A stretch of 64,000 nt of DNA from Nitrosopumilaceae archaeon. GTDB lineage: Archaea > Thermoproteota > Nitrososphaeria > Nitrososphaerales > Nitrosopumilaceae. The position numbers and the translations under genes are program-made. Location: NCBI GenBank assembly GCA_965208905.1, contig OZ242365.1:1312001-1376000 (forward strand). Direction: 5' to 3'. The notes below the pieces were generated by a model. It made no database searches, was not told the DNA's origin, and saw nothing but the letters and a program-made list of their open reading frames with translations. Below, piece by piece: positions 23,756 to 62,879 of the stretch; position 1 is the stretch's first letter, and every line of letters starts with the position of its first letter.

Positions 23756-25691
23756 TTATGGTGGCAGATCCGCGGGAGCAAGTATGTCCGACACATAATA
23801 TCCTGACCCAAATATCAGACCATCGTGCATTACAAGCCATGTGCGCTTGGTCTCTTCGTTGCTTGTTACCGGATTTATATGGTTATAGGCGACCCATGTG
23901 CCGGTTCCACGGCTGATTGCATCTATAATGTCTTGTGTGGCGAGCACCTCTGTAATGGCGCCCCAGTCTGCGACCTGTCCTATCAGATTTGGATTTACGT
24001 TCTGCGCCAGTGTGGTTCCTGTCTGCGGGTCGACTACAAAGAGATATGTGGCGAGTGGTTCGTCCGGTGTAGCATCAAATGCTGCAATGGCGGCATCCTT
24101 ACCCTTGTCCTCATATTGAAGTACGCTGCTAAACGTCACGGCCTGCACCTGTGAGTCCAGTATGTAATAACCCGAGCCAAAGACCAGTCCATCGTGCAGC
24201 TGCAAGTATGTGCGCTTTAGTTGCTCTACACCCGTAGCCGGATTGTGGAATGTGTACGTAAGCCATATTCTGCCGTTCTCTCTTAGCTCTGCAAGCACAT
24301 CATCAACCGACCTGCCGGATGTGTCAAGTATGGTCTCGGGTTGTCCCACCCTGGCAGGCACTACCCCATCGGCCAATCTGGTCCAGGATGTGGCGTTTAT
24401 CACAAACGGGTATAACGCGTCGGTAATGACAGGTTGTTTAGGCGTTATGATGTCAACCCACGCGTTGTTCTCACGGTTCGACTCGTAGATAAACCTAGCA
24501 TAGTCTGTCACCGACTGAGTATCAGCATCTGCAACGGTATATGGTGATAAGAAGATATAGTCATCATGGAAAATATACCATGCGCGTTTGATCTGCGTTA
24601 TACCGGTAAAAACGTCGTAAAATGCAACCTGTGTCCACCATGAATCTCCCTCCTCGAGTTGGTCTAACATCACATCGTTGCCCGTTGTCGATAGGGGGCG
24701 AACAGACCCGGCTAGACTGGGTACTCCCCCATGTGCAAGAATGTGTGTCGAGTTTGTCGCCACAGGATACATATCAATATGGTTAAGCATGCCCGAAGAA
24801 ATGACATCAAAGCCCGTCTCGGGATTGTTTCTGTATGTATAGATAGTATCGTCTACTACTGATTGTACCCGAATATCTGGTAGTGATATGCTTGCACCAA
24901 ATATGTAGCCATCATACAATATGATATACGAATGAGTGAGCTGGTCAGTCTGGGTTGCTGGATTTCGTGACATATGCCACACCCAGATACCGTCCTCATG
25001 AGACTGTAGCTCTTCTTTGATGTCTTGCAGAGATTTGTCGGCCATATTCAGGTAGGGGCTGATGGTTCCCACCAGTCCGGGCGCCCTTCCATGAGCCTCC
25101 ACCTCCAGCGTTGCGGCATTAAGCACAAAGGTCGACTGTGTCGATAGGGGATCGGGTACATCCGGTGTTATGATATCAAAGGCAGCAATACCGCGGGCCA
25201 TATACAGGATTTTGGCCGAGTCTGCCAGAGACTGGGCCCTGAAGTCGTGCGGATAATAACCCGAGCCAAAGACCAGTCCATCATACAGGTAGAGCCAAGT
25301 ACGTTTGAGCTGACTCACATCGGTAGCCGGGTTGTGGAATGTGTACGTCACCCATACACTGCCCCTTACCTCTAGTTCATCTAGCACATCTGTAACAGAC
25401 CTTGAGGAGGTATCAAGTATGGTCTCGGGTTGTCCCACCCTGGCAGGCACTACGCCATCGGCCAATCTGGTCCAGGATGTGGCGTTTATTATAAATGGGT
25501 ACAGCTCATCTGTTATGACGGGCGCCTCGGGGGTGATAATATCAAAGGCACCAACACCATGTGTCTCGTACAGCTGCACTGTATCCTCTATAAATTGTTG
25601 GACCTCAGAGTCTGGCAGGTAGTACCCTGCGCCAAATATGTAGCCATCATATAGGTGCAACAGTGTGCGCTTTGTCTGTGGCTGTCCGTTG
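23756..25691 (-). pseudogene. Multi-Cache-like repeat protein, 5'-truncated by a transposon end
   Basis: Repeated WxxYxFxNP...KRTW...DGLVFGSGYY modules; frame stays open to the TIR at 25692 and no continuation is seen beyond the element. Confidence 0.7.
24324..25489. repeat. Intragenic direct repeat, 77 bp (24324-24400 and 25413-25489), one mismatch
   Basis: Both copies encode INATSWTRLADGVVPARVGQPETILD; offset 1089 bp keeps frame. Confidence 0.9.
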
Positions 25692-25782
25692 GGAACTGGT
25701 GCATCTTGGTGACCTAGTGTGTGGTGGTGCGTGGGTGACCTGAGTTGAATTACTCAAATTAAAATGAAATGAAAAGGGGGAT

Positions 25783-27027
25783 TTATGCTGTGGATTTAGT
25801 TGCGGCTTGAATGAGTGTCATCCATTTGTTGTTACCTTCAACGGTAATACCTGCGGCCTCTGCTGGGGTTATTTGATTCGGTAATCCCAAGTGGGGTTTT
25901 ACAAAATTGTGATATAATCGCAGTCCAGAGATTATGCCAGAGTCTTCACGCTTAAGGCCACGGCACACTTTCTCTCTATGTCGCAGTGTTGCTCCGTTGA
26001 ATGATTCCATTTGGTTGTTATGATGTATGCCGTCAAACGCCACATCATGAATGTGTTCTGTATCTTTGTGTAGGAAGTTCTTTGCCTTGTATTGTTGCTT
26101 CCATGCATGATGGAAGTTAGCCGCTTTATCACTGATTAATGTGGTTGGGACTTTGCCTGTTACTTTTTTGGCTTGTTTAAACATGGGTGCCACATCATCA
26201 TTGCCCTTGTGTTCTGCTACCATCTTGGCTATCCAGAAGCGTGTCTCACTGTCTAGCATGGCGAATAGGTACTTTCTATTACCCTTGATTTTCAGATATA
26301 ACTCATCGGTACGCCATTGTTCACCAACTTGGGGTTTAATCTTGTCAACGAAGGTTTCCATCAGTTCTGCGTATTGTTTGCCCCATCGTTGTATGGTAGT
26401 GTGTACTACTGTAATACCAACCATCTTGAGTGTATTGGCCACCTTCCGTGAGGATAATCCACTAAACAGGAGATCTACTGCTTGAGTGATATGTTCAGGT
26501 GATGCCTGCTTCTTTTCAAATCCTAGGTTTTGGATAAATCTCCTGCCACACGTCCTGCACCCGAACTGTTGTTTGCCACGCTTAATACCCTTCTTGATAA
26601 TATCAGTTGAGTCACAGAATTTGCATTTTGTAAGGTCAACAACCTTGATAGTAGTGGTAACTTCCTCTTGGACGGCTGCCCTCATTCGCTTGCTAATTTC
26701 GATTGCATGAGCGTGCTTGCATACAACACCCCTGTACATTGAATCGGGACAGGAACAAACCCATCCTGATTCTGTATGTATCACCTCATAGACTTTACTA
26801 GAGGATTGACTTCTTACAGTATAGGTTGTATCATCTATTCTGGTTATCTGATTAGGCTTGCCTGCTATCTGCGCACCCCGTGTGATTCTAGCCGCCTGAC
26901 CGGGGCTATGGTTCTTATGGGGTGATAAGATAGTAGGCTCAGAGTGCAATTTGCTCTTCATTGGGATGGTCGAGATCCCTCTGACTTTCTTTTCATCATC
27001 GCCATACTTTGTTATTGTTTTATTCAT
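25783..27027 (-). CDS. IS6/IS240-like DDE transposase with N-terminal SWIM finger and Zn ribbon
   Basis: CSCPD...CKHAHA, CKFC...CRTC, WRTDELY, LISDKA, NNQMES. Confidence 0.85.
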   Translation of the reverse strand: MNKTITKYGDDEKKVRGISTIPMKSKLHSEPTILSPHKNHSPGQAARITRGAQIAGKPNQITRIDDTTYTVRSQSSSKVYEVIHTESGWVCSCPDSMYRGVVCKHAHAIEISKRMRAAVQEEVTTTIKVVDLTKCKFCDSTDIIKKGIKRGKQQFGCRTCGRRFIQNLGFEKKQASPEHITQAVDLLFSGLSSRKVANTLKMVGITVVHTTIQRWGKQYAELMETFVDKIKPQVGEQWRTDELYLKIKGNRKYLFAMLDSETRFWIAKMVAEHKGNDDVAPMFKQAKKVTGKVPTTLISDKAANFHHAWKQQYKAKNFLHKDTEHIHDVAFDGIHHNNQMESFNGATLRHREKVCRGLKREDSGIISGLRLYHNFVKPHLGLPNQITPAEAAGITVEGNNKWMTLIQAATKSTA

Positions 27028-27105
27028 GTATGTTATTAACGGTACGGTTATTTAACTGTTGCCAAAACCGCACGGTTTTTATATAGACATGTCTGTAATG
27101 TAATA

Positions 27106-27294
27106 ATGACGCGATGGAAAAAGAACGAGACAGAGTTCAGAGTCAAGATGCACCATTATAAGAACAGGGACGGCTCCGGCACATCAAGTTGCCGGATTCC
27201 CAGTCCTATAATTAACTACATGGGAAAGCCCAACGAATTGATATTTGTGATCAATAATAAGACGGGGGAGGTAGTCGTAAGTGCAGGTGACTAA
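27106..27294 (+). CDS. Small protein, possible AbrB/SpoVT-like DNA-binding regulator
   Basis: 62 aa, RIPSPIINYMGKPNELIFVI pattern; divergent from the transposase and overlapping the MTase start. Confidence 0.55.
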   Translation: MTRWKKNETEFRVKMHHYKNRDGSGTSSCRIPSPIINYMGKPNELIFVINNKTGEVVVSAGD

Positions 27295-28342
27295 AACACT
27301 GGCGTATGAACCAGATGCCGTATCTGACTTTGACCTGCTTATGGGCGATTCGGCAGACGTACTGACACGATTTCCGGATAATTCGATCAACTGCACCGTC
27401 ACGTCCCCACCGTACTGGGGACAACGCGAGTATGACACAAAAGACAGCATCGGACATGAAGGTTCGTTTGATGAATACATGCAACACTTGATATGCGTGT
27501 TTGACCAAGTGTATAGGGTAACGGCAAAAGATGGGTCGTTGTGGCTCAACATCGGGGACAGATACCACAACAAGAATCTCATGGGTATGCCTTGGAGGGT
27601 CGCGCTTGCCCTGAAGGATCGGGGATGGATACTGCGCAATGACATAATTTGGAACAAGGTACGCATGACTCAGAGCGCAAAGGACAGGCTCCGTGACCTG
27701 CACGAGTATGTGTTTCACTTCGTCAAGAATCCAAAATATTACTATAACAGGAAGGCTATACTGATCAAGCACGACGAGAAACCCAAAAGACGTAACGGTA
27801 GACTTGTGTCAATCACAGGTACAAGTGGGATCCGTTACAGGGAACAGATACGACTGTCAACGCATCTCTCAGACACGGAAAAACAAAACGCAGTTACGGC
27901 ATTGGACAATACACTACACGACATGGCAGACGGCAAGATTGTGGATTTTCGCATGGCCATACGCGGACAACAAAGAACGTCACATGGTTCCAGTGAAAAG
28001 ATCAGTGGTAGAGCAAAAGAGATAGAAAAGTACGGATTCTATGTCATATCGCAGAGTTCGGAGGGATACATGCCTACCGACTTGTGGAGTATCGTACCGG
28101 AAGACACACACCGAAAAGACATACACTGCGCGGTATATCCAACTACCCTCTTGGAGATCCCGATAAAGGCGACATGTCCACCGGGAGGACTCGTACTAGA
28201 TCCGTTTACGGGAACTGGTACTACTATAGTGGCCGCCCTCAAGCACGGCAAGCGTGGTATAGGCATAGACGTGAGTAGCGCTTATCTTACACATGCAGAA
28301 AACAGGATAAAGACATTCCAGCAGACGGGACTAGAATGTTGA
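27281..28342 (+). CDS. Site-specific DNA methyltransferase, beta class (likely N4-cytosine)
   Basis: TSPPYW motif IV N-terminal; DPFTGTGTT motif I C-terminal. Confidence 0.92.
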   Translation: MQVTKTLAYEPDAVSDFDLLMGDSADVLTRFPDNSINCTVTSPPYWGQREYDTKDSIGHEGSFDEYMQHLICVFDQVYRVTAKDGSLWLNIGDRYHNKNLMGMPWRVALALKDRGWILRNDIIWNKVRMTQSAKDRLRDLHEYVFHFVKNPKYYYNRKAILIKHDEKPKRRNGRLVSITGTSGIRYREQIRLSTHLSDTEKQNAVTALDNTLHDMADGKIVDFRMAIRGQQRTSHGSSEKISGRAKEIEKYGFYVISQSSEGYMPTDLWSIVPEDTHRKDIHCAVYPTTLLEIPIKATCPPGGLVLDPFTGTGTTIVAALKHGKRGIGIDVSSAYLTHAENRIKTFQQTGLEC

Positions 28343-29176
28343 GACCGGATCACTTTTGTTTATTTTTGCCCCTATGATTTTTTTGGCGTCCTCATAGTTG
28401 ATGAGCAGGTTACCATCAACTGCAAACGAGAACAAGAGATCAACCCACCTCGTGGCCATAATCTTCTTTCTGCGTATGCGGTATCGTTTATCTTCTTCTA
28501 CAAGTGAGTACAGGAAAAACATGAATGTCTCAGTAGAGTAGGACTTGATCTCATGCGTTTGTATCTTGAATTTCGATGTGAACTGCTCCCACAACTCGTC
28601 CTGCATGACGGCTATATATGGCATCTTCCATTCGTCGAACAACTGTCCCTTGAAGATAAACTGTGGTAGAAATCCCTTGAAGGACGCAAGCGTATTTAAC
28701 CCAAATGTGTAACTTTTTTTGAGCCTATCATTTAACAGGTCATCTATCGCAGTCGCAAATGATCCCGTACCCGTTGTGGCATCGGACTGTATCTCTACCC
28801 CTATGAACCTGTTTGGGTCTCTGACCGGTGTTAATATCCAGTCAAGATTACCGTAATCAAATCTCTCGTTGTCTGTCTTCTTTGCCAGTTTGACTTCGTT
28901 GCGTGCGTCAGTTTGTACCTCGGATCCCCAAATAAAGTCTCGTATTTCGTGCAGTATCTTATAATCGTCCTCATAAAATCGCCGCGGGCAGATGATCCTG
29001 TTTCTGTCTCCCAGACATGCAGAACAGTTGCCGTATTTCGATGCAGTTCGGTTGGGCTTGTCACACTGGACGATGCGCCTGTCAAACGGACACCCATAAT
29101 CGCGGTTGCGAAAGCGGGCCTTGGCCACGTCTGAATCGAATTTTTCGCCAAACGCCTCCAACTGTCTATTTGTCAT
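28331..29176 (-). CDS. NotI-family restriction endonuclease
   Basis: Cys4 cluster CPF...CDK...GNCS...ICPRRF, then NLDWIL...VEIQS PD-(D/E)xK variant; convergent with the MTase. Confidence 0.8.
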   Translation of the reverse strand: MTNRQLEAFGEKFDSDVAKARFRNRDYGCPFDRRIVQCDKPNRTASKYGNCSACLGDRNRIICPRRFYEDDYKILHEIRDFIWGSEVQTDARNEVKLAKKTDNERFDYGNLDWILTPVRDPNRFIGVEIQSDATTGTGSFATAIDDLLNDRLKKSYTFGLNTLASFKGFLPQFIFKGQLFDEWKMPYIAVMQDELWEQFTSKFKIQTHEIKSYSTETFMFFLYSLVEEDKRYRIRRKKIMATRWVDLLFSFAVDGNLLINYEDAKKIIGAKINKSDPVSTF

Positions 29177-29644
29177 GAAATATGTTGACTGACTTGTTTA
29201 TAATATATCTTGAGAGTGTGTGATATAATTCCCGGGGATTCCTAGGTCACCCACGCACCACCGTACAACAGGTCACCAAGATGCACCAGTTCCTATTTCG
29301 TGCAGTATCTTATAATCGTCCTCATAAAATCGCCGCGGGCAGATGATCCTGTTTCTGTCTCCCAGACATGCAGAACAGTTGCCGTATTTCGATGCAGTTC
29401 GGTTGGGCTTGTCACACTGGACGATGCGCCTGTCAAACGGACACCCATAATCGCGGTTGCGAAAGCGGGCCTTGGCCACGTCTGAATCGAATTTTTCGCC
29501 AAACGCCTCCAACTGTCTATTTGTCATGAAATATGTTGACTGACTTGTTTATAATATATCTTGAGAGTGTGTGATATAATTCCCGGGGATTCCTAGGTCA
29601 CCCACGCACCACCGTACAACAGGTCACCAAGATGCACCAGTTCC
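28943..29644. repeat. Tandem duplication of 351 bp (28943-29293, 29294-29644) including REase 5' end, promoter and right TIR
   Basis: Copies appear identical by eye; creates truncated ORF 29273..29527. Confidence 0.92.
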
Positions 29645-29688
29645 AAAATAACGTTACTGATATATACTTTGATTCAATAGCATCTGTT

Positions 29689-56357: not shown

Positions 56358-56596
56358 ACAACGCTATGCTTTCCTTTTATGTATAAAAGCACCTACTGTG
56401 CATGCTTCTGGTAAGTTAACGTGAGATAGATCATCTTGGAAAGTGAGTGAGATACTTCGAATCTGTCAAAAAGGGTACATGAAACGGGACGGTTAAGAAC
56501 TAAGTACCTCAACACACCTGTTAAGTGGTGGTACCTGAGGGGTTCTGGGATATATTAGGTACATAGAGTGTAGTGTAACAGAAGATCATGAAATCA

Positions 56597-57082
56597 CTAG
56601 CCAGACAACTTATAGTTGGTGTTTTCCTTTAACCATTGTCGGATAGTAGAATGAAGACCCCTCAACTCTGGGTCCCAAAGATACCTTACTGTTTCCTTAT
56701 GTGCGCCTAACTCATCCAATACCATTCCAAAATACGACATCACATGCTGTTTTGTGAGTACACTATCATAGTATAAAGAGGTGACTGTAGTTAGATGATT
56801 GAGGTATTTTACACGTATGAACTTTAAGTTGTCATCTGTCTCAAATGTTTCTTGGTGGGATATCATAGAACACGCTGTGTACAAGTCCTTATCATTATAC
56901 AGCTTCTCCCACAATTTTAGTATGAGATGTGCTGAATCAATCCAGACTCGTTGGTTCAACATATCTTTTTGTTGTTGAACCTGATGTCGGTTTGAGCGCC
57001 ATATCGCAAATGCAACCACCGCACTACCGCAGAATGTAAGTGCCGCAATGATTACGGAGATTGCCAATCCGAGATCAAACAT
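56597..57082 (-). CDS. Hypothetical protein with N-terminal TM helix
   Basis: 161-aa ORF. Confidence 0.6.
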   Translation of the reverse strand: MFDLGLAISVIIAALTFCGSAVVAFAIWRSNRHQVQQQKDMLNQRVWIDSAHLILKLWEKLYNDKDLYTACSMISHQETFETDDNLKFIRVKYLNHLTTVTSLYYDSVLTKQHVMSYFGMVLDELGAHKETVRYLWDPELRGLHSTIRQWLKENTNYKLSG

Positions 57083-57481
57083 CTTTGATCAAATCGGTGC
57101 CTAACCATATAAGCATGATGCAGAATGTTTTTTACCCCTAATCGCCATATTATAGTGTGGAACACTTGGAACCCATTATACTTGATTTCTACCTTCATAG
57201 ACAGCACGTAGATTTATCTGAACCCAAACCAGGAGGCAGGCCGGAAAAAGCCATCATGGCAAAACGTACAAAACATATCTACAAGCCTGTTGTTGCCATA
57301 CCTAGTGTTCGCACATAGGTTCTGTAACATCTTGTTTTATCCGGAAATCATGTCGCGCTATATTCTGGTCGTCAGTCATGAATATCATCCTCCATCCATG
57401 TAGGGTTTTGACTTCTTGTTTCAACAGTTGCCTTCTTTTTTTGAAAGAAATTAGTTGATATGTACATAAAAAATAAAAAAG

Positions 57482-58741
57482 TTAGGATGTTGACTTTGCA
57501 GCTGCTTGAATCATGGTAAGCCACTTGTTGTCACCTTCAACGGTGATACCTGCAGCCTCGGCGGGGGTTATCTGGTTTGGGAGTCCAAGGTGTGGGCGTA
57601 CAAAGTTGTGATACAATCGCAATCCAGAGATTATGCTAGAGTCATCCTTCTTCAAACCACGGCACACTTTCTCACGGTGTCGTAGTGTTGCCCCGTTGAA
57701 GGATTCCATTTGGTTGTTATGATGTATGCCATCAAAGGCAACATCATGTATATGCTCGGTCTCTTTGTGCAGAAAGTTCTTTGCTTTATACTGTTGTTTC
57801 CAAGCATGGTGAAAGTTGGCTGCCTTGTCACTAATTAATGTGGTTGGAACTTTACCCGTTACCTTCTTGGCCTGTTTAAACATCGGTGCTACGTCGTCAT
57901 TGCCTTTGTGTTCGGCTACCATCTTGGCTATCCAAAACCTAGTCTCTGAATCAAGCATTGCAAATAGATATTTGCGGTTACCCTTGATTTTCAGGTATAA
58001 TTCATCTGTACGCCACTGTTCACCGACTTGTGGTTTAATCTTGTCAACAAAGGTCTCCATAAGTTCACCATACTGTTTACCCCAATTTTGTATGGTAACA
58101 TGAGTAGTCTTAAGTCCAGTCATTTCAAGGCTGCGGGCAACCTTCCTACTAGATAAGCCGCTAAACAGTAAATCTACAGCCTGTGTAATCTGTTCAGGTG
58201 TGGCTCTCTTGCGAGTGAACCCGACATTATGAGTGAACCGCTTAAGGCAGTCTATACACTTGAACTGCTGAACTGGACCTTTCTTGAACTTTCGTATACC
58301 ACATTTCACTACATTGGTTGACTCACAAAATTTACACTTGGTAAGGTCAACCTGCTTGATAATGATTTTAGGTACTTCCTGTTGTACCGCTTTTCTTATT
58401 CGGCGGCTTATCTCGACTGCATGAATATGCTTGCATATTACACCACGATACATATGATCCGGGCATGAACAAATCCAGCCATGCTCGGTGGATAATACCT
58501 CGTATACTTTATCGGATGATTGGGAACGTACCGTGTATGTCAGGTCGTCTATTCTCGTGATTTGGTTAGATTTACTGACTATTTGAGCGCCCCGTGTTAT
58601 GCGGTCATTGGTGGTCTGTCCAGTCACATTGCCAACTGATATATTGTATAATGGTGTAATATGCTCAGAGTGCAATTCGCTCGTCATTGGGGTTGCTGCC
58701 CCTCTGGCTTTTGTTTTCATCATCGCATTTGTTATTGTCAT
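57482..58741 (-). CDS. IS6/IS240-like DDE transposase with SWIM finger (paralog of 25783..27027)
   Basis: Catalytic half nearly identical to the first copy; CSCPD...CKHIH. Confidence 0.85.
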   Translation of the reverse strand: MTITNAMMKTKARGAATPMTSELHSEHITPLYNISVGNVTGQTTNDRITRGAQIVSKSNQITRIDDLTYTVRSQSSDKVYEVLSTEHGWICSCPDHMYRGVICKHIHAVEISRRIRKAVQQEVPKIIIKQVDLTKCKFCESTNVVKCGIRKFKKGPVQQFKCIDCLKRFTHNVGFTRKRATPEQITQAVDLLFSGLSSRKVARSLEMTGLKTTHVTIQNWGKQYGELMETFVDKIKPQVGEQWRTDELYLKIKGNRKYLFAMLDSETRFWIAKMVAEHKGNDDVAPMFKQAKKVTGKVPTTLISDKAANFHHAWKQQYKAKNFLHKETEHIHDVAFDGIHHNNQMESFNGATLRHREKVCRGLKKDDSSIISGLRLYHNFVRPHLGLPNQITPAEAAGITVEGDNKWLTMIQAAAKSTS

Positions 58742-58816
58742 TAACTACCCTATGGTATAACGATAATATATAGTTATCCCATAGAAGGGTTAAAATAACT
58801 GACATGTGGGTTAAGT

Positions 58817-59047
58817 GTGTTGGGAATTACTAAAAAAACAATCAAGGGTCTGGAATACATCTATTTTGCCTATTATGACGAGACATCAAAATCTAAACAA
58901 TACAAATCGTGTGGGTCTGCTACCAATAAGGAATCTATGATCAAAGCTATATCACTTGAGCGCGAGTATCTGAAGCGACGTAAGAATAAACTAAACGAGG
59001 AAATTACACAGATACAGGAGAAAATAGATGGACTTGCAAAGTTATAA
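58817..59047 (+). CDS. Small basic protein divergent from the transposase
   Basis: KKTIKGLEYIYFAYY...KSCG plus coiled coil. Confidence 0.6.
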   Translation: MLGITKKTIKGLEYIYFAYYDETSKSKQYKSCGSATNKESMIKAISLEREYLKRRKNKLNEEITQIQEKIDGLAKL

Positions 59048-59162
59048 TACGAGGCCTACGGCCAAATACGAGGCCTACGGCCAAATACGAGGCCTACGGC
59101 CAAATACGAGGCCTACGGCCAAATACGAGGCCTACGGCCAAATACGAGGCCTACGGCCAAAT
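59046..59162. repeat. Tandem repeat, 6 x 19 bp (AATACGAGGCCTACGGCCA)
   Basis: Six exact units, no spacers. Confidence 0.95.
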
Positions 59163-59231
59163 TATACAAGCGGCGCCATACTATACAATACATACAACGC
59201 CTTATCAATTCATCGGAGGCTGTATATGTGA

Positions 59232-60680
59232 ATGTCTGGCATCAAGAACCGGACAATATTCACAGGCGACAACCTAGAGATATTACGTGGCTTTCCAGAT
59301 GAATTTGTTGATTTAATATATCTAGACCCGCCATTTAACTCAAAACATAACTATGCTGCCCCCATAGGTTCTAAGGCGGCTGGGGCTGCCTTCAAGGATA
59401 CGTGGACTTTACAAGATGTGGATGTATCATGGTGGGGGGAGATTGCCGAGACAAACACTGCCCTGTATAAGGCACTAGAGGCAGCCAAACATACAGCAGG
59501 CAAGAGTGCCATGTCCTATCTAATCTACATGGCAATACGCATACTAGAGATGTATCGTATACTAAAGAGTACAGGTTCTATATACTTGCATTGCGACCCA
59601 ACCATGTCTCATTATTTGAAGATGGTGTTGGATTCGATTTTTGGAGTAGTGAATTTTAAGAACGAGATTGTATGGAAACGATCAAAGGGACATCCACTAT
59701 CCATTAAAAAATTTGAAGCAGTAGCAGACTATATCTTAGTTTATCAAAAATCAGGTAACAGTGTTTTCTACCCAGTAAAATTACCAATGGATGAACAAAC
59801 AATAAAAAGAGATTATAGATATAAAGATGAACATGGGCGTTACAGTACATGTTCATTAACAGGTGGCAAGGCTGGCGGTGAATCTGCGTACTTACCATTT
59901 AACGGTGCATTACCATCTTCAGGACGTGGATGGGCGCCACCTACTAGGCAAAAGATACCACAATGGGCAGCAAAAATATTACCTTCAGATTATGAAAAGA
60001 TGAATCAACTTGAAAAATGCCACGCTTTAGATGCTATTGGAATGATAGTATGGTCTGCTAATAACGTGCCTAGATACAAACACTATCTAAAAGACGTTCC
60101 ATACAAACTTGCTAATAGTGTATGGTATGACATAAAATTACTAACCTCCCATTCCAAAGAAAAACTCGGCTACCCCACCCAAAAACCCATAGCCTTGTTA
60201 GAACGTATAATACAAGCCTCTACAAACGAGGGAGATATTGTACTAGATCCGTTTTGTGGATGTGCGACCGCCTGTTCAGCAGCTGAACGGCTAAACCGAG
60301 AGTGGATTGGTATAGACATATCACCAAAGGCGGTTGAGTTGATGAACGCCAGAATGGTCAGCGAGGCAGGGATTGAAAAGTGGACAAAGGGCGCAGGAAT
60401 GGTAATTCAAAGGACGGACATACCAATACGCAAAGGCAATAGATCAAAGAACATAAAACATCAACTATTCGGTATGCAGGAAGGCAGATGTAATCTATGC
60501 AGACATGAAATTGAATTTCGACATATGGAAGTCGACCATGTAATACCAAGGGCCAAGGGTGGACCTGATGATGATGGCAACCTCCAACTATTATGCGGTC
60601 ATTGCAATCGTGTTAAAGGTAAGGGGACAATGGCAGAAGCAAAGGTGAGACTGATCAAGCTGGGAATAGTAGCCCGTTAG
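59232..60680 (+). CDS. Beta-class N6-adenine DNA methyltransferase fused to a C-terminal HNH nuclease domain
   Basis: IYLDPPFN, YPTQKP, DPFCGCAT; CNLC...VDHVIP...NLQLLCGHCNRVK. Confidence 0.88.
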   Translation: MSGIKNRTIFTGDNLEILRGFPDEFVDLIYLDPPFNSKHNYAAPIGSKAAGAAFKDTWTLQDVDVSWWGEIAETNTALYKALEAAKHTAGKSAMSYLIYMAIRILEMYRILKSTGSIYLHCDPTMSHYLKMVLDSIFGVVNFKNEIVWKRSKGHPLSIKKFEAVADYILVYQKSGNSVFYPVKLPMDEQTIKRDYRYKDEHGRYSTCSLTGGKAGGESAYLPFNGALPSSGRGWAPPTRQKIPQWAAKILPSDYEKMNQLEKCHALDAIGMIVWSANNVPRYKHYLKDVPYKLANSVWYDIKLLTSHSKEKLGYPTQKPIALLERIIQASTNEGDIVLDPFCGCATACSAAERLNREWIGIDISPKAVELMNARMVSEAGIEKWTKGAGMVIQRTDIPIRKGNRSKNIKHQLFGMQEGRCNLCRHEIEFRHMEVDHVIPRAKGGPDDDGNLQLLCGHCNRVKGKGTMAEAKVRLIKLGIVAR

Positions 60681-60981
60681 GTCATCGATTTTACACCATC
60701 ACACAGATCACTTTACAAAACCACCATCACACAAATTTGACAGCATATATCACTACACACGTTCTTGACAGTTCCCAAAACGAATTAGGGAATCTATACA
60801 AGGTGCATCTTGGTGATTTGATGTGTAGTGATGTATTGGTGATCTGAACAAGCATGTAAAGGTGACTTCTTACAGAATTTTGACTACTTACTGAATATAA
60901 TTAGTGTGGATGGTTGCGTGTAACTCCCCGACCTATATTCTGACGTAGTGCATGTCCTAAATGGCCTACCCATTTTTTCAT

Positions 60982-61383
60982 TTACCGTATATCTACGGTA
61001 GTTGTAGAATCTGGATTTGAAGAGAAAAGCCAGCCACGGGTTTGAGCTACTACTCTGAGATTCTTAGATATTCTCTTAATTTGACTTTTTGTAGAATTCC
61101 CAAACTCAATGAATGCATGTTCCTCGTATGGTATATGATCATCCACAACATCCAGATTCATGCGTGTACATTCGTTCACGGTCACAGCCATAACCCCGCT
61201 TGATTCTTTGTGTAATGTAGATGTATAATGTTGCCATGCTTTTTTAGCTGTTATTTGATCTCCATCGTAAACTGATAGACGGCACGGATCTCTTGATGAA
61301 GGACGAAATGCTCTAGATCCAGCACGACCTTCTCTAACGAAATTAGGATGAATCTGCCGGTATAGTTGGGTCTCACCATTCAT
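60982..61383 (-). CDS. Hypothetical protein, possible ART/RES-like fold
   Basis: LYRQ...LSVYD...EEHAFI; overlaps the upstream gene by 4 bp. Confidence 0.65.
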   Translation of the reverse strand: MNGETQLYRQIHPNFVREGRAGSRAFRPSSRDPCRLSVYDGDQITAKKAWQHYTSTLHKESSGVMAVTVNECTRMNLDVVDDHIPYEEHAFIEFGNSTKSQIKRISKNLRVVAQTRGWLFSSNPDSTTTVDIR

Positions 61384-62507
61384 TTCAACATCTCTTTCAT
61401 GGAGCGTATTTGGTTAGCCACCCATTCCCAACTATCCTGCTTGTTAAGATCTAATACCGTCTCATCACTGGAATTAGTACTAACATCATACCAACTCCAT
61501 TCGCCACTATGCTTTACAAGATCTACCTCTAGGCTAATTTCCCGTTTACCTATACTCCATTCTAAATCAAGATCACCCTTGGGAGTGGGGTATATGTGAG
61601 GAAGCACAACATTGTTGGGATAATATTGCTTGAAGATGTCAGATAGCCAATCCAAGCCATCATGACTAGGAGCAACACCTTCACCATTTAACCAACCAGT
61701 TTTCATGGTACGCAGCTCATCTAACTGTACCAATACATCCAGTTTATCCAGTAAATGGATGTGAGTTATTGATTCAATAGAGATACGTCCATCTCGACTG
61801 TGCTGAACAGTACCCTGTATCTGTACTCTTGCATTGTCCTTATATCTGTCGAATGCTTTCATAATGATGTCATAGTAAGGGTCCGGCAGATGGCCTGTAA
61901 CTAACGGACCATAGACCTGTTGTAGACTAAATGTCATGTTTTTTTGATCTATCTTATGCACGGAGCCACGTAGAACTACCTCACTCGCACGCCTAATTGT
62001 GGATGTAAGAGATAGTACCTTATCGCGTATTTTTTTGGTTAGCCTAGCCGGAGTTTGATGCGTGGAGGCAGTCAACTCTAATGTCTCATCATCACGAAGA
62101 TTATGTCCTATATGCTTAAGGTGTTCTAACATGTCATACGATGGAACCTCGTCTGGTGGTAGTTGTTCATCCTGTGCCAGATGCTTAATAGTCTCTACTA
62201 TATACTCTTTCGCACTCTCAAAATATTTTTGGTGTAGTATCTGCCCATCCAATGTCTGTTGTGTTGTGGTGAGTTTGAATACTGGTACGGTGCTTCCACT
62301 TTCAATACTAACTAATTCCAAATCAACTTTACTAAAGTCAGGTGAAGAACGTCTACGATTTGGATTATCTTTTAAATACTGCCATCGCGCTACTTCTATC
62401 ACCATCTCTTGCAGGGCATGCAAGTTGGGAAGAACGTCTTTCGGTATCCCCCCGTTCTTAAATCGCGCTCCATCCAACCGAGGTCGTAAAAAATCTACGC
62501 TTGGCAT
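61380..62507 (-). CDS. Hypothetical protein, three apparent domains
   Basis: 375-aa ORF; IESGS motif, OB-like middle, C-terminal GWLNGEG...HIYPTPKGDLDLEW. Confidence 0.75.
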   Translation of the reverse strand: MPSVDFLRPRLDGARFKNGGIPKDVLPNLHALQEMVIEVARWQYLKDNPNRRRSSPDFSKVDLELVSIESGSTVPVFKLTTTQQTLDGQILHQKYFESAKEYIVETIKHLAQDEQLPPDEVPSYDMLEHLKHIGHNLRDDETLELTASTHQTPARLTKKIRDKVLSLTSTIRRASEVVLRGSVHKIDQKNMTFSLQQVYGPLVTGHLPDPYYDIIMKAFDRYKDNARVQIQGTVQHSRDGRISIESITHIHLLDKLDVLVQLDELRTMKTGWLNGEGVAPSHDGLDWLSDIFKQYYPNNVVLPHIYPTPKGDLDLEWSIGKREISLEVDLVKHSGEWSWYDVSTNSSDETVLDLNKQDSWEWVANQIRSMKEMLK

Positions 62508-62879
62508 AAGATCACCAAAACAGGACAGACTTGGTGCGTACTACACAAAAACTTAAACTCGGCTTTCATCTACCCCTCAACACTATATCTACTATAATAA
62601 TCCATACCCGCTTAATCCAATTCAGATTTACCCTTCAATCCTGATGCTGAAAATACAAGAAGAGAACAAAAGATGTGACAGGCCTTGCAGGAAGAGTTCT
62701 GCTACAAAGCAGGAGATTATGTATGTAATAGTTGAAGTTAATTTTTCAAATTTGTATTTTTTAAACATTGTATTTCTCAGATCACTATACTATCATCTCA
62801 CCCACTTTCCAACATATTCTATCTCACGTTAACTTACCAGAAGCTATGTGTCGTTGTTATATCGGCGACACATGTACTC

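Follow-up and report, generated by a model that had tools for sequence, protein, structure and literature searches.

The 64,000-nucleotide stretch analysed here (the window), positions 1,312,001 to 1,376,000 of contig OZ242365.1 from a Nitrosopumilaceae archaeon (assembly GCA_965208905.1), carries at window positions 25692-29293 a 3602-bp transposon that combines an IS6-type transposase with a pair of restriction-modification (R-M) genes. We read it, with a probability of roughly 85%, as an autonomous and recently active element in which an IS6-type backbone has captured a type II R-M module, which transposes replicatively and whose cargo benefits the element. A second, identical copy in the same genome, empty target sites in other datasets and 8-bp duplications show that the element moves as one recently active mobile unit. 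It appears to be one member of a large and undescribed archaeal branch.

The transposon and its two copies

The element and its immediate surroundings comprise the following features (window coordinates; ORF, open reading frame):

25684-25691: 8-bp left flank GTCCGTTG (site X)
25692-29293: the 3602-bp transposon unit, with canonical boundaries fixed by the second identical copy
25692-25741, plus strand: left terminal inverted repeat of 50 bp from a repeat search, tip GGAACTG, with an outer box GGTGACCT at 25708-25715 and an inner box at 25734-25741
25783-27027, minus strand: transposase, 414 aa in a single ORF (PF13610 DDE_Tnp_IS240, E 1.2e-14, 55 bits against a cut-off of 27)
27028-27105: 78-bp gap between the transposase gene and the divergent small ORF
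27106-27294, plus strand: small ORF of 62 aa, whose end overlaps the first 14 nt of the methyltransferase gene
27281-28342, plus strand: DNA methyltransferase, 353 aa (PF01555, E 5e-48)
28331-29176, minus strand: NotI-family restriction endonuclease, 281 aa (PF12183, E 6e-6, 26.2 bits against a cut-off of 22)
29244-29293, minus strand: right terminal inverted repeat IRR1, matching the end of the second copy
29294-29644, minus strand: tandem second copy of the terminal 351 bp, with a second right end, IRR2, at 29595-29644
29645-29652: 8-bp right flank AAAATAAC (site Y)

The gene content agrees with a preliminary description of this DNA, which had seen a single SWIM/zinc-ribbon DDE transposase, a small divergent ORF, an SPPY methyltransferase and a NotI-type nuclease. 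That description also took the whole of 25692..29644 for a self-contained R-M transposon. The self-contained transposon stands, and its right boundary moves inward to 29293, as 29644 is the end of the 351-bp repeat. The boundary follows from the second copy, which a whole-genome search located 510 kb away at G000:C1:1851328-1854929 (G000 being the present genome). This copy is 3602 bp long, directly repeated and 100% identical; it ends at the first right arm and has the same boundaries as the window unit.

The flanks of the two copies are exchanged. The window copy has GTCCGTTG on its left and AAAATAAC on its right, and the second copy has AAAATAAC on its left and GTCCGTTG on its right; each 8-mer is present twice in this genome and once at the empty sites. 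Site X is empty in contigs of sequencing runs X5 and X7, which come from two other studies and in which the left flank of the window copy continues directly into the right flank of the second copy. Site Y is empty in an 11.4-kb X7 contig that joins the left flank of the second copy to the right flank of the window copy. It is also empty in the related genome G005, where the flanks align at C2:33199-34698 and C2:34691-37546 with an overlap of exactly 8 bp and 98% identity. Joining the X flanks in silico restores a 789-aa ORF across the junction.

At site X a Cache-domain gene is split (window 23756-25660 and L002:5103-5544); genes of this multi-copy family contain internal repeats of 366-735 bp, and numerous paralogues exist in this genome and in its relatives. 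The first in-frame ATG of a radical SAM gene (29689, the likely native start) lies 44 bp downstream of site Y, and the outer right end supplies an in-frame ATG at 29632, 19 codons upstream of that start. The insertion may alter the promoter or the N-terminus of this gene.

Raw reads agree with this copy number, although this evidence is not independent of the assembly. In run X1, the probable source sample, word depth rises from about 24 in the flanks to 49 within the element, and a 351-nt unitig corresponding to 29294-29644 reaches 72; in run X2 the values are 10, 20-22 and 32 (on the 351-bp unit). These ratios support the presence, in the raw data, of two complete copies and one additional terminal segment. 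In both runs the right end (window 29293, 29645) also runs into sequences missing from the assembled genome, and such loose junctions may mark additional insertions in strains or organisms that occur alongside this one.

The ends of the element are long and doubled. The inverted arms measure 50-53 nt, and 25692-25741 is 91-92% complementary to 29595-29647 or 29244-29293 (repeat search); the left and right arms are identical at 46 of 50 positions, all four mismatches falling in the spacer between the boxes. The 24-nt tip is present three times in the window, whereas 100 shuffles gave an expectation of 0.00. The tip itself, GGAACTGG, retains the GG and CTG, yet the repeat is 50 bp long and doubled. 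As the preliminary description had noted, each arm holds two boxes: GGTGACCT stands at arm positions 17-24 and 43-50, an offset of 26 bp in both arms, and its repeat score is reached by 3.5% of 200 shuffles of one arm. Each 50-bp end thereby contains two sites of about 20 bp, each ending in GGTGACCT, which we infer to serve as terminal and sub-terminal transposase-binding sites.

Beyond the right end, 29294-29644 is an exact tandem repeat of 28943-29293, comprising 351 bp with the 5' part of the nuclease gene and the inverted repeat. The boundary of this duplication coincides exactly with the tip of IRR1, and an 84-aa ORF in the repeat region (29273-29527) corresponds to the 5' part of the nuclease gene. 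Right-end-like sequences without an element occur at three further places in the genome (G000:C1:741921-741959, 1938415-1938464 and 1638071-1638109, with 0, 2 and 4 mismatches to the 24-nt tip, respectively). The first of these solo ends is also present as contigs in runs X1 and X2.

The transposase is assigned by its domain match and by motif residues that are invariant among 11 paralogues in alignment A1. These are the SWIM-type CxC..CxH residues C91, C93, C103 and H105, the zinc-ribbon CxxC..CxxC residues C135, C138, C157 and C160, and, C-terminal to both, the IS6-type DDE residues D241, D300 and E341. The SWIM profile PF04434 is matched in paralogues of the enzyme. The gap at 27028-27105 is presumed, from its position between divergent genes, to be a divergent promoter region.

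The small ORF belongs to the transposon backbone, because homologues lie between transposase and cargo in loci L015 (47% identity), L029 and L069, where the cargo differs. It has no Pfam match at E up to 10. Its structure model (predicted local distance difference test score, pLDDT, 81) returned no Foldseek hit at E <= 0.001, and the best Z in a VIA-align comparison with 48,161 chains was 3.1. A motif of the form RIPxPIxxxxG had raised the possibility of an AbrB/MazE/SpoVT regulator, which was not supported by Pfam, BLASTP, Foldseek, VIA-align or hhalign (probability 1.5%); BLASTP gave no match to the MazE-like ORF of L039, and the kinship is kept as a weak lead through an Atlas score of 0.86 alone. 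Paralogues of the small ORF with 32-39% identity stand apart from the listed transposase matches at L076:475-645, L077:255-425 and L078:392-562, with a tandem twin at G000:C1:1473152-1473322. Elsewhere in the group, small ORFs of DNA-binding type adjoin the transposase (MazE/AbrB-like at L039:6698-6913, HicB-like at L084:7416-7736 and ArsR-like at L097:5583-5909), which suggests that a slot for a small regulator is common in the backbone.

Restriction-modification cargo and related elements

The methyltransferase domain is complete (PF01555 match), of the N4/N6 kind, and has the motif order of the beta class, with SPPY near the N-terminus and FTGTG near the C-terminus; the SPPY motif may point to N4-cytosine methylation. 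The nuclease gene converges on it with a 12-nt overlap. An adjacent methyltransferase and a separate nuclease gene form a predicted type II R-M module. Both genes are intact and identical in the two copies of the element.

At E <= 0.001 the search recovers 63 homologues of the nuclease, the majority with PF12183 and one named as NotI family. A structure model built from 28 homologues (pLDDT 83) has NotI chains (3c25, 3bvq) as its four best Foldseek matches, with E from 5e-9 to 2e-6, a probability of 1.00 and template modelling (TM) scores of 0.60-0.63; the next match has an E of 1e-2. The nuclease is accordingly assigned the NotI fold, which combines a Cys-rich metal site at the N-terminus with a PD-(D/E)XK core. 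The cysteines C29, C38, C51 and C63 are invariant in the 28 homologues and presumably form the NotI-type N-terminal metal site.

Relatives of the nuclease with 54-62% identity were found at 14 metagenome loci. The transposase and the small ORF are missing from all of them, and a weak, motif-level match to the methyltransferase is present at no fewer than 8. Because such relatives exist elsewhere without the backbone, the R-M module counts as captured cargo. In run X5, an RNA library from a different study, a 217-nt contig corresponds to the 5' region of the nuclease gene at 28911-29124 with 6 differences, which points to a close relative of this gene in another sponge sample. No other contig from run X5 or X7 covers the interior of the element, a result that indicates neither absence nor expression.

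Palindrome avoidance in the genome led to no assignment of a recognition site. The sole hint is CGGCCG, which is under-represented (395 seen against 587 expected, z -7.9) and ranks third among under-represented 6-bp palindromes; CTATAG and TATATA are depleted even more, and many other palindromes are avoided as well.

The genome holds 13 full-length paralogues of the transposase (tblastn), which are 38-81% identical apart from the duplicate copy. Nine of the 13 adjoin R-M or methylase genes that differ from one another, and one more lies next to a remnant; the neighbours of two others are of another kind or unknown, and those of one copy were left out of the count. Five of these siblings have long inverted repeats:

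E2, window 56404-62844, 6441 bp: a fusion of methyltransferase (MTase) and HNH domains, plus three ORFs without a Pfam match
E3, 3409 bp: D12 methylase and HaeIII-type nuclease
E4, 3374 bp: PF01555 methylase
E5, 3692 bp: MTase-HNH
E6, 3354 bp: MmeI_C fragment

Three paralogues without a clear repeat pair adjoin a PF01555 methylase, a type ISP enzyme and an Eco57I-like methylase. Six of the 16 PF01555 genes in the genome lie within these elements; by simple arithmetic, the roughly 4.8% of the genome within 3.5 kb of a transposase copy would account for about 0.8 of them. R-M cargo of many enzyme families recurs beside transposases 72-81% identical to that of the window.

A scan of one genome per species yielded 56 related loci, all but two fragments coming from Nitrosopumilaceae or from metagenome-assembled genomes of other Thaumarchaeota. 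Of these, 36 near-full-length loci were scanned for repeats and 34 were annotated, L045 (a second copy of the L044 element) and L026 being omitted; 20 partial loci stand outside the counts. A DNA methyltransferase is present in 18 of the 34 loci: inside 10 of 14 elements bounded by terminal inverted repeats and within 3.5 kb in 8 of the 20 others. Partner nucleases among the relatives are of the MunI, HinP1I, CfrBI, MvaI/BcnI, GmrSD-HNH, PD-(D/E)XK and His-Me types. The loci are not independent, as the same element type is repeated in L044/L046, L032/L033, L027/L047/L069 and L020-L022. At L015:5927-6961 and L017:1604-2638 an ORF for an IS3-type (rve) transposase of 344 aa, with the same Pfam scores in both, is found next to or within IS6-like elements; in L015 it comes after the methylase gene. 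Insertion sequences (ISs) of the IS630, IS66, IS110 and IS5 types also crowd the related loci.

The transposase lineage extends through the class. Profile A1 has matches at E <= 1e-60 in 143 of 401 class genomes. The family of the window accounts for 101 positives among 223 genomes and a second family for 27 among 78, and five genomes flagged as unpublished are counted in these figures. A further 20 distant loci, not a random set, were hand-picked among the stronger matches of other genera and families. Thirteen of them have the same type of ends, spanning 2339-6195 bp, and cargo in the set, either of defence type or without assignment, is HicB-like, Fic, AbiV-HEPN, a CAP12-type TIR protein, proteasome-like, ArsR-like, a type I-like M and S pair, or unknown.

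Altogether 33 elements could be delimited (a 34th copy, L045, duplicates the L044 element), ranging from 2042 to 6685 bp, and all carry extra genes. There is no bare IS among them, the smallest relative measuring 2042 bp. The preliminary description had suggested searching relatives for the repeat and the transposase and listing their cargo; this search accounts for 27 of the elements (28 copies, 2.0-6.7 kb), which lie outside this genome in other Nitrososphaeria and have the same doubled ends. An internal direct repeat is present in 22 of the 33 left arms at a score reached by at most 4% of shuffles, with offsets of 25-28 in 14, 36-37 in 6 and 20 in 2. The boxes are conserved within an element, and both spacer and box sequence vary between elements, along with the transposase. 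Among the 32 copies other than the window element, 21 have perfect 8-bp flanking repeats beside a G..CTG tip, and tips of relatives include GGTTCTGTCAA and GGAACTGTCAAAA.

These results favour the earlier view of an under-described class of unit transposons, in that cargo is present in every delimited element and our full-text literature searches, whose scope did not extend to ISfinder, TnCentral or paper supplements, found no description of the group. The suggestion that the class uses an R-M pair holds more narrowly. It fits 9 of 13 copies here and 18 of 34 close loci, and fails in the distant set, where R-M cargo occurs once. The rarity of R-M in distant members indicates a class that carries cargo in general and in which R-M dominates only among close relatives. 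A broader proposition, at even odds in our estimation, is that this is a class-wide, undescribed IS6 branch in ammonia-oxidising archaea that is never bare, whose SWIM and zinc-ribbon transposase reads two sites per end, and which is the main vehicle for transfer of R-M and other defence modules both inside a genome and from one genome to another.

Mode of movement and alternative explanations

In the mechanism that we propose, the transposase would cut at the GG tips and join them to the target with an 8-bp stagger, the two boxes of each end possibly being read by the SWIM and zinc-ribbon part of the protein. Transposition would be replicative and proceed through a cointegrate, as in IS6/IS26. 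The exchanged flanks on direct copies (X-element-Y ... Y-element-X) are what one IS6-type cointegrate would leave, and a 351-bp duplication that ends at the tip of the inverted repeat is as expected of a joint made by the transposase. The repeat may have arisen when the element once inserted into its own copy at 28943-28950, after which the long left parts recombined. We further propose that a displaced right end extends the mobilised segment and that the three solo right ends could act likewise, which would provide a route to cargo acquisition.

Established work argues that R-M systems are mobile and selfish, and it is the source of the idea of addiction that we apply here. The cargo would kill cells that lose the element, as restriction outlasts methylation, and might also add to the host a restriction specificity against viruses.

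Several results weigh against this reading. Direct copies with exchanged flanks cannot arise on one circle in one step, and the cointegrate therefore needs an ancestor with two circles or further rearrangements. Perfect 8-bp duplications are missing from 11 of the 32 related copies, and R-M cargo is found in only 1 of the 20 distant loci. On the side of the enzymes, phmmer did not connect the nuclease to NotI or to solved structures, giving chance matches only (E 0.15), and GCGGCCGC is not avoided in the genome (37 seen against 38 expected). The exact 24-nt tip has no match in JGI metagenome contigs or IMG/VR, a search that likewise yielded no virus or plasmid carrier, and the element is known only from this genome and sample.

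Four scenarios could account for the exchanged flanks. Two circles might have been fused by a single IS6 cointegrate; intramolecular replicative inversion might have been followed by an inversion that flipped one copy; two simple insertions might have been followed by excision and re-entry at another repeat; or the two repeats might have been mis-phased in the assembly. In the 98% identical genome G008 a contig ends about 130 bp before site X and the 5' end of the gene differs, G005 is strongly rearranged near X, and G006 and G009 are too diverged to inform the topology. An 88.6-kb contig of G005 (C2, 98% identical) unites positions 1814.6-1851.3 kb and 1341.6-1395.6 kb of G000:C1 at the empty Y site, and the sequence just past it maps within the main G005 contig at about 46.6 kb, which points to large rearrangements in G005 or to an unplaced or excised segment. 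The cumulative GC skew is weak and turns near 1.84 Mb, near the second copy, possibly by coincidence. Neither the genomes of relatives nor the GC skew gave a decision among the four options.

The exchanged flanks also invite explanations without a cointegrate. The assembly may have mis-phased two 3.6-kb repeats, or the genome may truly consist of two replicons, with simple insertions on circles of about 1.70 and 0.51 Mb. The alternative pairing of flanks would then give two perfect 8-bp duplications, the Y region of G005 sits on the separate 88.6-kb contig whose ends map to both ends of the 510-kb arc, and Logan contigs cannot phase left against right junctions. We nevertheless think this unlikely, as the genome is a single contig with 99.57% completeness and several relatives of the same genus and family are also single contigs of 1.6-2.7 Mb; we know of no second replicon of 0.5 Mb in this family. 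An equally improbable account has the element moving by cut-and-paste, with the flanks of two simple insertions exchanged later through homologous recombination and rearrangement. A repeat-rich genome (13 paralogues, and the IS3-like ORF with identical Pfam matches in L015 and L017) could drive such events, G005 is strongly rearranged near X, and 21 of 32 relatives show ordinary paired duplications. By our derivation, however, this account needs at least three extra events, no excision footprint or evidence of circles was seen, and excerpts of a review of the IS6 family (PMC7986276) describe its members as forming cointegrates.

A different doubt concerns the benefit of the cargo. The R-M genes might be inert passengers of an element that spreads purely as a selfish IS, with neither addiction nor defence. 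Broken cargo in siblings agrees with this: an EcoRI-type methylase lies in two ORFs in L047, an MTase-HNH gene is split in L043, E6 retains an MmeI_C fragment, and a type ISP enzyme occupies two ORFs in L016. Set against it, both R-M genes of the present element are full length and identical in two copies, and all 55 columns that are invariant across the 28 nuclease homologues are kept here (necessarily so, as the query is the first row of the alignment). The recurrence of R-M cargo from many enzyme families argues for selection to carry such modules, and we give the inert-passenger view a small share of the probability. We consider it extremely improbable that an R-M islet beside an IS gave rise to the second copy through segmental duplication or gene conversion. 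There are only two copies, both in one genome, but both stop exactly at the inverted repeats without homology between the loci beyond them, each target is present in relatives as an empty site with one 8-mer, and the same design bounded by inverted repeats recurs in 33 relatives. Replicative movement of a captured R-M module on an IS6-type backbone remains our preferred reading.

Comparison with known elements

Two familiar types of larger transposon do not fit. A composite transposon is ruled out as there is no flanking pair of ISs. Members of the Tn3 family have a large DDE transposase, a resolvase with its res site, inverted repeats of about 38 bp and a 5-bp duplication; a Tn3-like unit transposon is likewise ruled out, as no resolvase or other Tn3 domains are present and the duplication is 8 bp rather than 5 bp.

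In the usual view, IS6 elements are minimal ISs and need to act in pairs to move cargo. The present element resembles IS6/IS26 in its DDE_Tnp_IS240 domain, single transposase gene, tips of GG followed by CTG and 8-bp duplications. What follows refers to the cited sources in the excerpts available. The IS6 family is described with inverted repeats of 15-20 bp, lengths of 0.7-0.9 kb (up to about 1.8 kb) and cointegrates (PMC7986276). The direct copies with split duplications are as left by such cointegrates, and N-terminal CxxC extensions also occur in some IS6 clades. The differences lie in size, with 3.6 kb and three further ORFs against 0.7-0.9 kb without passengers, in the 50-bp two-site ends against short repeats with conserved cTGTt / caaa motifs, and in the SWIM motif, a word that occurs 0 times in PMC7986276. 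The branch is also archaeal (Nitrososphaeria), whereas the zinc-finger clades h and i of that review are clostridial.

The preliminary description contrasted the element with ordinary IS6 members that have short inverted repeats and carry cargo only as composites. The first part agrees with PMC7986276, and the second has one exception there, ISDsp3, the only IS6 member with a passenger gene in the excerpted review. Like ISDsp3, the present element holds cargo inside its ends; in both identical copies the methyltransferase and nuclease genes lie between the same ends, as in an IS with internal passenger genes (tIS). ISDsp3, compared by description only, occurs once in a Dehalococcoides strain and has a single hypothetical passenger, whereas cargo is a constant feature of the whole branch of the window element and often amounts to a complete R-M system. 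Two direct copies around a segment with split duplications are also known from IS26 translocatable units and pseudo-compound transposons (PMC7986276). Their cargo lies between two IS copies; here it lies inside each copy, and the bracketed segment is 510 kb of chromosome. Excerpts of PMC13343696, PMC11410982 and PMC12988326 contain nothing on IS6 with cargo.

The closest parallels for the cargo are the R-M units between imperfect inverted repeats described by Furuta, Abe and Kobayashi in 2010 (PMC2853133), with repeats of 65 bp in X. oryzae and 26 bp in N. gonorrhoeae. They share the placement of R-M genes within inverted repeats and an 8-bp duplication shown by an empty site. These are isolated bacterial cases: the X. 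oryzae unit lacks a transposase, and the transposase of the N. gonorrhoeae unit is of COG3677 type and probably inactive. No archaeal case survived the selection in PMC2853133, and the excerpts of that study describe no family, IS6 link or doubled end sites. Autonomous transposons dedicated to R-M have been known only as isolated bacterial cases, and here at least 13 R-M types are carried by one transposase lineage. The nearest relative within the window is E2, whose transposase is 78% identical and whose 53-nt ends hold two GTGAGATA boxes at an offset of 26, with methyltransferase cargo. E2 differs in its 6441-bp length, its MTase-HNH fusion and ORFs without Pfam matches, its single copy and the lack of a detected perfect 8-bp duplication.

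IS-like transposons of Thaumarchaeota have been described with one or two genes (PMC6563490). Transposases and R-M systems are both reported as enriched in sponge Thaumarchaeota, with no physical link drawn between them in the excerpts (PMC7848895, PMC6790972), and the excess of transposases is called unexplained in PMC7848895. If our reading of the branch is correct, it would physically explain the joint enrichment in sponge-associated Thaumarchaeota, and the 351-bp duplication and solo right ends would show pick-up of cargo through a displaced right end. The nuclease could yield a new NotI-family specificity, and the fresh copies, empty sites and terminal duplication make the element a good candidate for a first assay of archaeal IS6-type transposition. 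Judged by its sequence, the element is a relative of IS6 in its enzyme and 8-bp duplication and lies outside the family description in size, ends and cargo. With its internal cargo and doubled ends, this archaeal branch makes the distinction between an IS and a unit transposon less sharp inside a single family.

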